Of a DNA stretch of 64,000 nucleotides, positions 23,952-25,291 are shown in pieces. Within the stretch, counting starts at the first letter, position 1. The number at the start of each line of letters is the position of its first letter. The translations under genes were made by a program, and so were the position numbers. Where the stretch lies: assembly GCA_951406725.2 (NCBI GenBank), contig OX597827.1, forward strand, positions 24,552,001 through 24,616,000, in the 5' to 3' direction. This DNA is from Octopus vulgaris. Its lineage: Eukaryota. Under the pieces are notes generated by a model, which saw only the letters and a list, made by a program, of their open reading frames with translations, was not told the DNA's origin and searched no databases.

Positions 23952-24486
23952 TTATATATATATATGTATATATATATATATATATATATATATATATATA
24001 TATATATATATATATATATATATATATATATATATATATATATATATATATATATATGTATATATATATATATATATATGTATATATATATATATATATA
24101 TATATATATATATATGTATATATATATGCGGCAAAGTAATTTATTTTACTAAGCCCTTTTATATAATGTAATAATTTGAATTCGCCTTAAATGGTCCCTT
24201 TGCATACTGAACACTTGGTGAAATTGATTAATAATTAATTAATTTTACCCTCAATTGTTGAAATTATAATTAATCTCCCTCTAATTAATGCTTCGGATTT
24301 TACCGAAATAAGCATAGTGTTTGATGATTTTAACCCACGCTGGTGGAAAGGGGAGAACAGAAATTCTTCGCTTGCTTATTTGAGTTTGTTGGCACTGTTA
24401 GTTACGAGCAGATCTTCGAAAGCGATGAGAAGCCGAAAGGGTATGTTCTTACTTTCAGTGTTTCCAAATCCAAACCAAGGAGTTTC

Positions 24487-24538
24487 TGAGCTGATGATAG
24501 AAGTGTCGTTTTGACTAATCTTGAAACGTACGTTCTCA
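24487..24538 (+). ncRNA. Minimal type I hammerhead motif (unit 1)
   Basis: TGAG-CTGATGA-TAGAAGTGTCGTTTTGACTAATCTT-GAAAC-GTAC-GTT-CTCA; CUGAUGA and GAAA boxes intact. Confidence 0.75.
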
Positions 24539-25048
24539 AATAACCTTAGCATTTGATTTTTTGATGTCCTTACCCCCAAACTTTTGTGAGTTGAATTAAG
24601 CAAACACTATATATGAGAGAGATTTTCTTTAAGTATTAGAAATAGCTTTAAAAAAGTTTTCTAGCTGCTATTTCTAATGAGTTCAGTATGCGGCAAAGTA
24701 ATTTATTTTACTAAGCCCTTTTATATAATGTAATAATTTGAATTCGCCTTAAATGGTCCCTTTGCATACTGAACACTTGGTGAAATTGATTAATAATTAA
24801 TTAATTTTACCCTCAATTGTTGAAATTATAATTAATCTCCCTCTAATTAATGCTTCGGATTTTACCGAAATAAGCATAGTGTTTGATGATTTTAACCCAC
24901 GCTGGTGGAAAGGGGAGAACAGAAATTCTTCGCTTGCTTATTTGAGTTTGTTGGCACTGTTAGTTACGAGCAGATCTTCGAAAGCGATGAGAAGCCGAAA
25001 GGGTATGTTCTTACTTTCAGTGTTTCCAAATCCAAACCAAGGAGTTTC

Positions 25049-25100
25049 TGAGCTGATGATAGAAGTGTCGTTTTGACTAATCTTGAAACGTACGTTCTCA
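25049..25100 (+). ncRNA. Minimal type I hammerhead motif (unit 2)
   Basis: Identical to 24487-24538, offset by 562 bp. Confidence 0.75.
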
Positions 25101-25291
25101 AATAACCTTAGCATTTGATTTTTTGATGTCCTTACCCCCAAACTTTTGTGAGTTGAATTAAGCAAACACTATATATGAGAGAGATTTTCTTTAAGTATTA
25201 GAAATAGCTTTAAAAAAGTTTTCTAGCTGCTATTTCTAATGAGTTCAGTATGCGGCAAAGTAATTTATTTTACTAAGCCCTTTTATATAAT

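Follow-up and report, generated by a model that had tools for sequence, protein, structure and literature searches.

A 64,000-nucleotide stretch of Octopus vulgaris DNA (contig OX597827.1, positions 24,552,001 to 24,616,000; hereafter the window) contains a 562-bp non-coding unit that is repeated in tandem, carries a hammerhead motif in each copy and is embedded in (TA)n. An earlier note, made from the letters alone, had read it as a candidate retrozyme derived from a circular RNA. What kind of element is this repeat, and how could a copy slightly longer than two units have entered a (TA)n tract? All coordinates given below are those of the window.

Structure and setting of the dimer

Compared at an offset of 562 bases, 24125-24729 and 24687-25291 agree at 605 of 605 positions (0 mismatches), so that the identity of the two units, previously judged by eye, holds throughout; other periods between 555 and 570 match only at background level. 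With the start set at the left (TA)n junction, unit 1 occupies 24128..24689 and the identical unit 2 occupies 24690..25251 (both 562 bp, + strand), and bases 24125-24127 are microhomology common with the tract. A more-than-dimer remainder of 33-40 bp (25252..25291, +) brings the insertion to 2.08 units of 562 bp and ends in a TATA site merging into (TA)n. Taken from the right end, the remainder equals a 40-bp truncated third copy at 24128-24167. The 43-bp terminal redundancy reported earlier is present, yet it contains TA microhomology at both ends (3 bases on the left, up to 7 on the right), and therefore only ~33 bp of it (24128-24160) is unambiguous. A host origin of the redundancy, as a target-site duplication, was rejected, since these bases belong to the family and adjoin the unit without a break in its other copies. 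The (TA)n tracts claimed on both sides extend over 175 bp on the left (23953..24127) and ~1 kb on the right (25285..26292).

The unit has a GC content of 33% and, as the earlier note had concluded, no credible ORF: around the circle, the longest ATG-initiated frame encodes 29 aa on the plus and 58 aa on the minus strand, and the two longest stop-free frames had no match in Pfam. No RT or GIY-YIG ORF of the kind that marks an autonomous Penelope-like element lies inside the insertion, and GIY-YIG had no match in the 32 of 245 window frames scanned.

From left to right, the locus consists of (TA)n, a LINE piece, (TA)n, a diverged relative of the unit (element A), (TA)n, the dimer and (TA)n. The LINE fragment (21843-23015) is a 5'-truncated RT ORF (RVT_1) free of internal stops. 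The protein collection contains a full-length relative of it (P0001) with 85% identity; most of the relatives listed carry an AP-type endonuclease domain, and the sole species-named match among 120 is to Argonauta hians (60%). Together with the look of the short repeats, these matches fit an octopod source. This fragment begins directly after a 290-bp (TA)n, which would suit a unit that is a SINE-like passenger of an AP-endonuclease LINE, a truncated copy of which sits in the same (TA)n nest. Such carriage is hardly credible, however, as neither the unit nor A has similarity to the LINE end or to the rest of the window (blastn, nhmmer), and type I hammerheads are tied in the literature to Penelope-like elements (PMC4209133, PMC7229834). 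Elsewhere in the window there are broken Tc1/mariner-type transposase remnants (9908-10474 and 12743-13798; HTH_48; PAX/HTH, DDE_3), LINE remnants at 49979-50509 (+, zf-RVT) and 52899-53390 (-, RVT_1 with a C1/PHD-like finger), in that order, and degenerate tandem repeats of 66-67 bp that recur at 980-1220, 11586-11709 and 21214-21427.

Hammerheads and the predicted circle

Both units contain a predicted type I hammerhead, called by a descriptor and by folding: the first at 24477..24547 (+), with a predicted cut after 24534, and the second, identical, at 25039..25109 (+), with a predicted cut after 25096. The conserved boxes occur intact once per unit, as stated before (CTGATGA at 24491 and 25053, GAAACGTACGTT at 24523 and 25085). 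In the first hammerhead, helix I pairs 24487-24490 with 24535-24538 and is extended by a distal stem, and the core comprises 24491-24497 and 24523-24526. The type I fold is predicted only under constraint. In this constrained fold, helix I has 4 bp followed by an internal loop and the 4-bp distal stem, helix II is weak with a U-U mismatch at its base, and helix III is a single C-G pair closing a palindromic GUAC loop. Our descriptor (the two core boxes, a helix III of one pair closing a loop of 4 bases, and a 4-bp helix I) matched exactly three times on the two strands of the 64 kb, always with a GUAC loop, and 0 times in 100 first-order Markov simulations; having been composed after the motifs were seen, it speaks for rarity and not for independent discovery. 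Rfam returned no match at the gathering score and no hammerhead among 25 matches at E<=10, and the ribozyme call thus rests on the descriptor and manual folding.

The earlier suggestion that tandem hammerheads with palindromic GTAC loops could dimerise gains support from the folding models. Two copies of ACGUACGU pair with a predicted energy of -10.4 kcal/mol. For a 646-nt transcript, the double hammerhead is predicted at -154.1 kcal/mol versus -145.6 for two single folds, and this advantage of 8.5 kcal/mol, together with the one-pair helix III over GUAC, indicates that a double hammerhead would be needed. The free minimum of the same transcript is -168.4 kcal/mol, ~14 below the double fold, so the active folds are not the predicted minima; in the circle, the hammerhead fold likewise lies 10 kcal/mol above the MFE. 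Published activities are mixed. Amphibian (axolotl) retrozyme hammerheads with a one-pair helix III or a U-U helix II base cleave far better as dimers (PMC7229834). In vitro cleavage was seen for only one of nine Xenopus retrozyme dimers (bioRxiv 10.64898/2026.07.22.740005), and minimal hammerheads of the Penelope type are inefficient at cleavage (PMC4209133). We count the weak cleavage in the latter two groups against activity of the octopus hammerheads. In the contigs described below, the 27 core and helix I positions include none of the 38 variable places listed (P=0.14, not significant; 23 further rows lie outside this count). The contig alignment has no place where many molecules start or end, and contigs cannot show a cleavage site.

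Between the two predicted cuts lies a 562-nt monomer (24535..25096, +) whose circle has a predicted MFE of -142.6 kcal/mol with 61% of bases paired. It is thus highly self-paired, at z -5.6 relative to 40 dinucleotide shuffles. The minus strand folds nearly as well (z -5.0), which we count against the explanation favoured below. Seven of eight folding controls from the window were weaker than the monomer circle, and the eighth is a DNA foldback. That control (z -11) overlaps a MITE-like foldback of ~330 bp at 27012-27342, the arms of which are 82-94% complementary.

Further motifs mark the unit. A hairpin with 12-bp perfect arms (24635..24678, +) lies ~100-145 nt past the cut, and element A is predicted to form a related one. 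TATA sites number only three in the unit; they lie at 24160-24165, 24265-24268 and 24608-24614 and cover 16 of its 562 positions. A 16-nt motif precedes both site 1 and site 2: its first copy is at 24134-24149, and its second, 99 nt later, opens the segment 24233..24268 (+) that leads into site 2. The hammerhead region is enclosed by a 25-nt inverted repeat (24314-24338 / 24586-24610, 80%).

A diverged neighbor and a variable family

The earlier claim of one hammerhead per unit stands, but a third hammerhead in the window had been missed. It belongs to element A (23473..23952, +), a 480-bp diverged relative between the left tract of the dimer and a further (TA)n tract (23114..23472). The alignment of A takes in most of the unit, with 225 of 425 columns identical, and its score of 159 exceeds that of 200 doublet shuffles (105.7 +/- 8.1, maximum 130). 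The predicted hammerhead of A (23660..23775, +) has a 6-bp helix I, a U4C core, a 61-nt helix II and a GUAC loop. Its boxes are CCGATGA at 23678 and GAAACGTACGTC at 23746, with a GUC site and a predicted cut after 23757. The U4C variant has lower in vitro activity and still supports a viroid (PMC3088659). Between the unit and A, the pairs of helix I change from A-U to C-G (both sides changed), from G-C to G-U and, at pair 6, from U-A to C-G; this covariation suggests selection on the fold.

The two elements also agree in their right ends, which align with each other; in the dimer, 188-195 nt separate the predicted cut from the (TA)n on its right, and in A the interval is 195 nt. A placement of A's end at 24745-24845 scored 32.5 compared with 50 for 24660-24745, a score that includes the shared hairpin anchor, and the latter was kept. 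No family members besides the unit and A were detected in the window by blastn and nhmmer.

The family also occurs in public sequencing runs. Of the 24 runs listed, 20 contain half or more of the unit's words; they come from 10 studies and 3 coded organisms, and all are contig sets, none on record as RNA. One rotated unit (24330-24891) was then aligned to the contigs of four runs (X1, X3, X14 and X15), of which X3 and X15 are only guessed to be RNA and were used for junction sequence only. The aligned contigs numbered 4444, 130, 55 and 1767 (4444 and 1767 in the presumed DNA runs X1 and X14). Their identity to the unit ranges in class from >=99% down to <90%, and every run covers all 30 bins of the unit, which together indicates a variable multi-copy family; depth is uninformative about copy number. 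In metagenome contigs, a 16-base scan returned 117 loci, rejected as probable chance matches (best blastn match to the unit, 24 bases), and a hammerhead pattern scan of viral contigs gave 0 matches.

One position is informative about the origin of the dimer. At 24661, the family base T accounts for 99.95%, 100%, 100% and 99.97% of summed contig depth in the four runs, and both units of the dimer carry C (24661 and 25223). The shared rare C indicates that both units descend from one copy. The earlier note had the copy made around a circular RNA; one template copied twice is borne out by the rare C, but a linear tandem or a local duplication leaves the same footprint.

The dimer might first of all be an assembly error, the true locus consisting of one unit plus tail between the (TA)n tracts. 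The perfect match of 605 bases would fit, as would the fact that no aligned contig spans the whole stretch. We consider this very unlikely, given that the window contains no N, that the resolution of a 1-kb (TA)n with scattered G interruptions suggests long reads, and that multi-mapping short-read polishing should have replaced the C at 24661 by the T of the family. Even with a misassembled locus, the element would remain real, and so would its hammerhead.

Alternatively, the insertion may have begun as a 1.08-unit copy whose 43-bp terminal repeats then allowed local doubling, through unequal crossover or slippage. This would yield exactly two units and a further 43 bp, without differences between the units and with the rare C in both, in surroundings where the flanking (TA)n tracts are unstable. 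The route is the same as that proposed for the birth of retrozyme satellites, and unequal crossover is favored for local amplification in bioRxiv 10.64898/2026.07.22.740005. Doubling would still need a more-than-unit precursor, however. Moreover, 43 bp is a short substrate for recombination, and on these counts we judge the route improbable.

The junctions within the insertion are continuous in other family copies, contig 21 crossing 24690 and contigs 16 and 30 crossing 24729 with at least 31 bases per side; joints from the right edge back to 24330 are weak, with sides of 26 and 46 bases. Five contigs from X3 and X15 (among 24 of 220 loose-end rows) reach (TA)n at two places, 24823 and 24830, which lie ~100 nt past the end phase of the insertion. 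The ends at 24830 fall on the second TATA site, and 24823 lies four bases before it. The share of aligned sequence continuing into unlike sequence was 0 in X1 and X14 and 0.04 in X3 and X15; contigs break at forks, and an attached ORF could therefore be hidden.

These observations bear on a further alternative, in which an element of the same Penelope-related kind was copied from a linear template, through an uncut transcript reading across a tandem donor homogenised not long before or through repeated template jumping on one linear RNA; the copied sequence may have been an autonomous element's terminal repeat. On this view the hammerhead would be carried along passively, and a circle would not be needed. 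This is a serious contender, though on the whole an unlikely one. Naiads without canonical hammerheads normally show partial tandems and tails (PMC8557442), the right end of the dimer coincides with the end of A, many such hammerheads cut weakly, and an ORF lost at contig forks would escape notice. Yet none of the aligned sequence in either presumed DNA run continues into unlike sequence, copies end at two different sites of the unit, the donor units would have to be identical down to the shared rare C, and the helix I covariation between the unit and A suggests selection on the fold.

Two observations on depth stand apart. Summed depth drops after 24823-24842 in all four runs, and we rejected this as the main family end, since depth does not measure copies, bins just as low are found at other places (X14, 24406-24443) and 24869-24891 varies between subfamilies. 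In X15, the summed depth of a 93-base contig at 24726-24823 (7-base gap) greatly exceeds that of the remaining unit, and its right end coincides with loose (TA)n ends; the contig may represent a short piece of the family from another locus or a distinct transcript.

Affinities and a proposed route of insertion

Metazoan non-LTR retrozymes of coral, mussel and axolotl are, as described by Cervera and de la Pena (2020, PMC7229834), tandem non-coding repeats with a type I hammerhead in each, a GC content below 50% and a self-paired predicted circle. The octopus unit shares all of these features and forms a multi-copy family, and at the level of sequence it fits the definition of a non-LTR retrozyme, the class suggested in the earlier note. 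It further shares a one-pair helix III and a palindromic tetraloop with HHR_Amex1, and the U-U helix II base with HHR_Amex2, both of which work as dimers (PMC7229834). Unlike the retrozymes of that study, the octopus unit is embedded in (TA)n and is known from sequence alone. Its 562 nt exceed their ~170-400 nt, in line with the earlier remark that it is longer than typical monomers, but lie inside the 51-972 bp range of a recent survey (bioRxiv 10.64898/2026.07.22.740005). The dimer agrees with the working definition used there (at least two consecutive units, each with a hammerhead), and dimers form one of its classes. Molluscs are absent from that survey, which as described comprises 31 vertebrates, 3 insects and 1 coral and ties Xenopus families to named pLTRs, whereas the octopus unit is without a named partner.

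Affinities to Penelope-like elements are equally apparent. Hydra-clade and Naiad elements, including Hydra-1_Obim, Naiad_Obim and Naiad_Ovul (Craig et al. 2021, PMC8557442), resemble the dimer in their (TA)n targets, partial tandems and tails of 30-40 bp, and PMC3846280 further supports (TA)n targeting and partial tandems with 30-40 bp tails in such elements. As in the dimer, Hydra-clade elements carry a sense hammerhead near the 3' end (~100-200 nt from it), and 14 of the 26 hammerhead rows listed for them have U...U at the base of helix II, as in the unit (PMC8557442). They differ in a helix III of 3-4 bp, compared with one pair plus GUAC in the unit; the hammerhead sequence of Hydra-1_Obim is unlike that of the unit, and the dimer lacks the RT or GIY-YIG ORF of Hydra-clade and Naiad elements. 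Among nine short motifs compared with the octopus Naiad/Hydra consensus in the supplement of PMC8557442, seven were unmatched and two matched in unrelated surroundings, and the Naiad 3' ends showed no match to the unit by eye, although weak homology could escape motif and eye comparison. Cephalopod Naiads are described there as long inactive. Inspected by eye, the 3' ends of Naiad_Obim and Naiad_Ovul have GAAAC shortly before CUGAUGA, a permuted-hammerhead order; the authors marked only half a core in Naiad_Ovul (PMC8557442). The Penelope minimal hammerheads of Cervera and de la Pena (2014, PMC4209133) share with the unit a palindromic helix III suited to dimer action, but flank an ORF of ~3 kb, whereas the octopus hammerheads flank a 562-nt non-coding unit. 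Octopus vulgaris is reported to have 31 recently active Penelope-like families (PMC13282606), and an unnamed Penelope-like partner element in this species is plausible.

Circles as templates for more-than-unit copies have already been proposed (PMC4209133), and the circle model for Penelope-like elements and retrozymes is in print (PMC4209133, PMC7229834; reviewed in PMC7761336). The return of a retrozyme circle into the genome is proposed there and is not known to have been demonstrated (PMC4209133, PMC7229834). With the class, its size range and the circle model published, the 562-bp family is likely an additional member. Among the titles and abstract openings listed for hammerheads or retrozymes in octopus, cephalopods and metazoans, none names a cephalopod retrozyme, although supplements and repeat libraries may include the family; in the portions available, PMC7229834 gives no cephalopod example and PMC8967140 lacks the word ribozyme.

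The element is very probably a hammerhead-bearing, Penelope-related non-autonomous repeat. As to how this copy arose, we lean, with reservations, towards a non-LTR retrozyme (a non-autonomous Penelope-like element) that a Penelope-type RT inserted into (TA)n by copying about twice around one circular RNA, to give the exact 2.08 units. Both ends of the insertion bear on this reading. The earlier note took the copy to start at an arbitrary phase. On the present reading, only the left end is free in phase; the right end sits on the first of the three TATA sites and aligns with the end of A. The last 16 bases of the left tract, including a G interruption, recur at 25292-25307, and this repeat of 13-18 bp is a weak candidate for a target-site duplication, being near chance level in (TA)n.

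We infer a mechanism in five steps. A tandem donor would first be transcribed from the plus strand; two hammerheads would associate via ACGUACGU, and their cleavage after GUU would free a 562-nt RNA for closure into a circle by a host ligase. A GIY-YIG endonuclease would nick (TA)n, and the free DNA end would pair with the UAUA site 188-195 nt past the ribozyme site. Finally, reverse transcriptase would complete two rounds plus ~40 nt and join the left flank via the 3-base microhomology. Priming would then have taken place at the right end, with the redundancy as a truncated third copy on the left. Alternatively, later deletions between an internal TATA and the flank could produce ends at TATA sites.

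More speculatively, octopods might possess a family of circular-RNA retroelements that is abundant, still active and directed to (TA)n. The nicked end would prime on any of the three UAUA sites of the 562-nt circle, producing circularly permuted multimers whose units have locus-private mutations in common, and the unit and A would represent at least two long-diverged families. We offer this as a conjecture with the odds against it. The family provides two signatures that can be read from a genome, namely locus-private variants that recur throughout a multimer's units and ends restricted to TATA sites, and these make circle-templated, target-primed insertion testable by a census of one long-read assembly. 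The value of the dimer is that of a clean test case for such insertion. A probable cephalopod lineage would join the retrozyme map, and the family would illustrate a route by which octopus (TA)n tracts gather nested insertions. If permuted multimers with locus-private mutations prove to be the rule, they would document directly, in the genome itself, that a Penelope-type enzyme has carried out rolling-circle reverse transcription.
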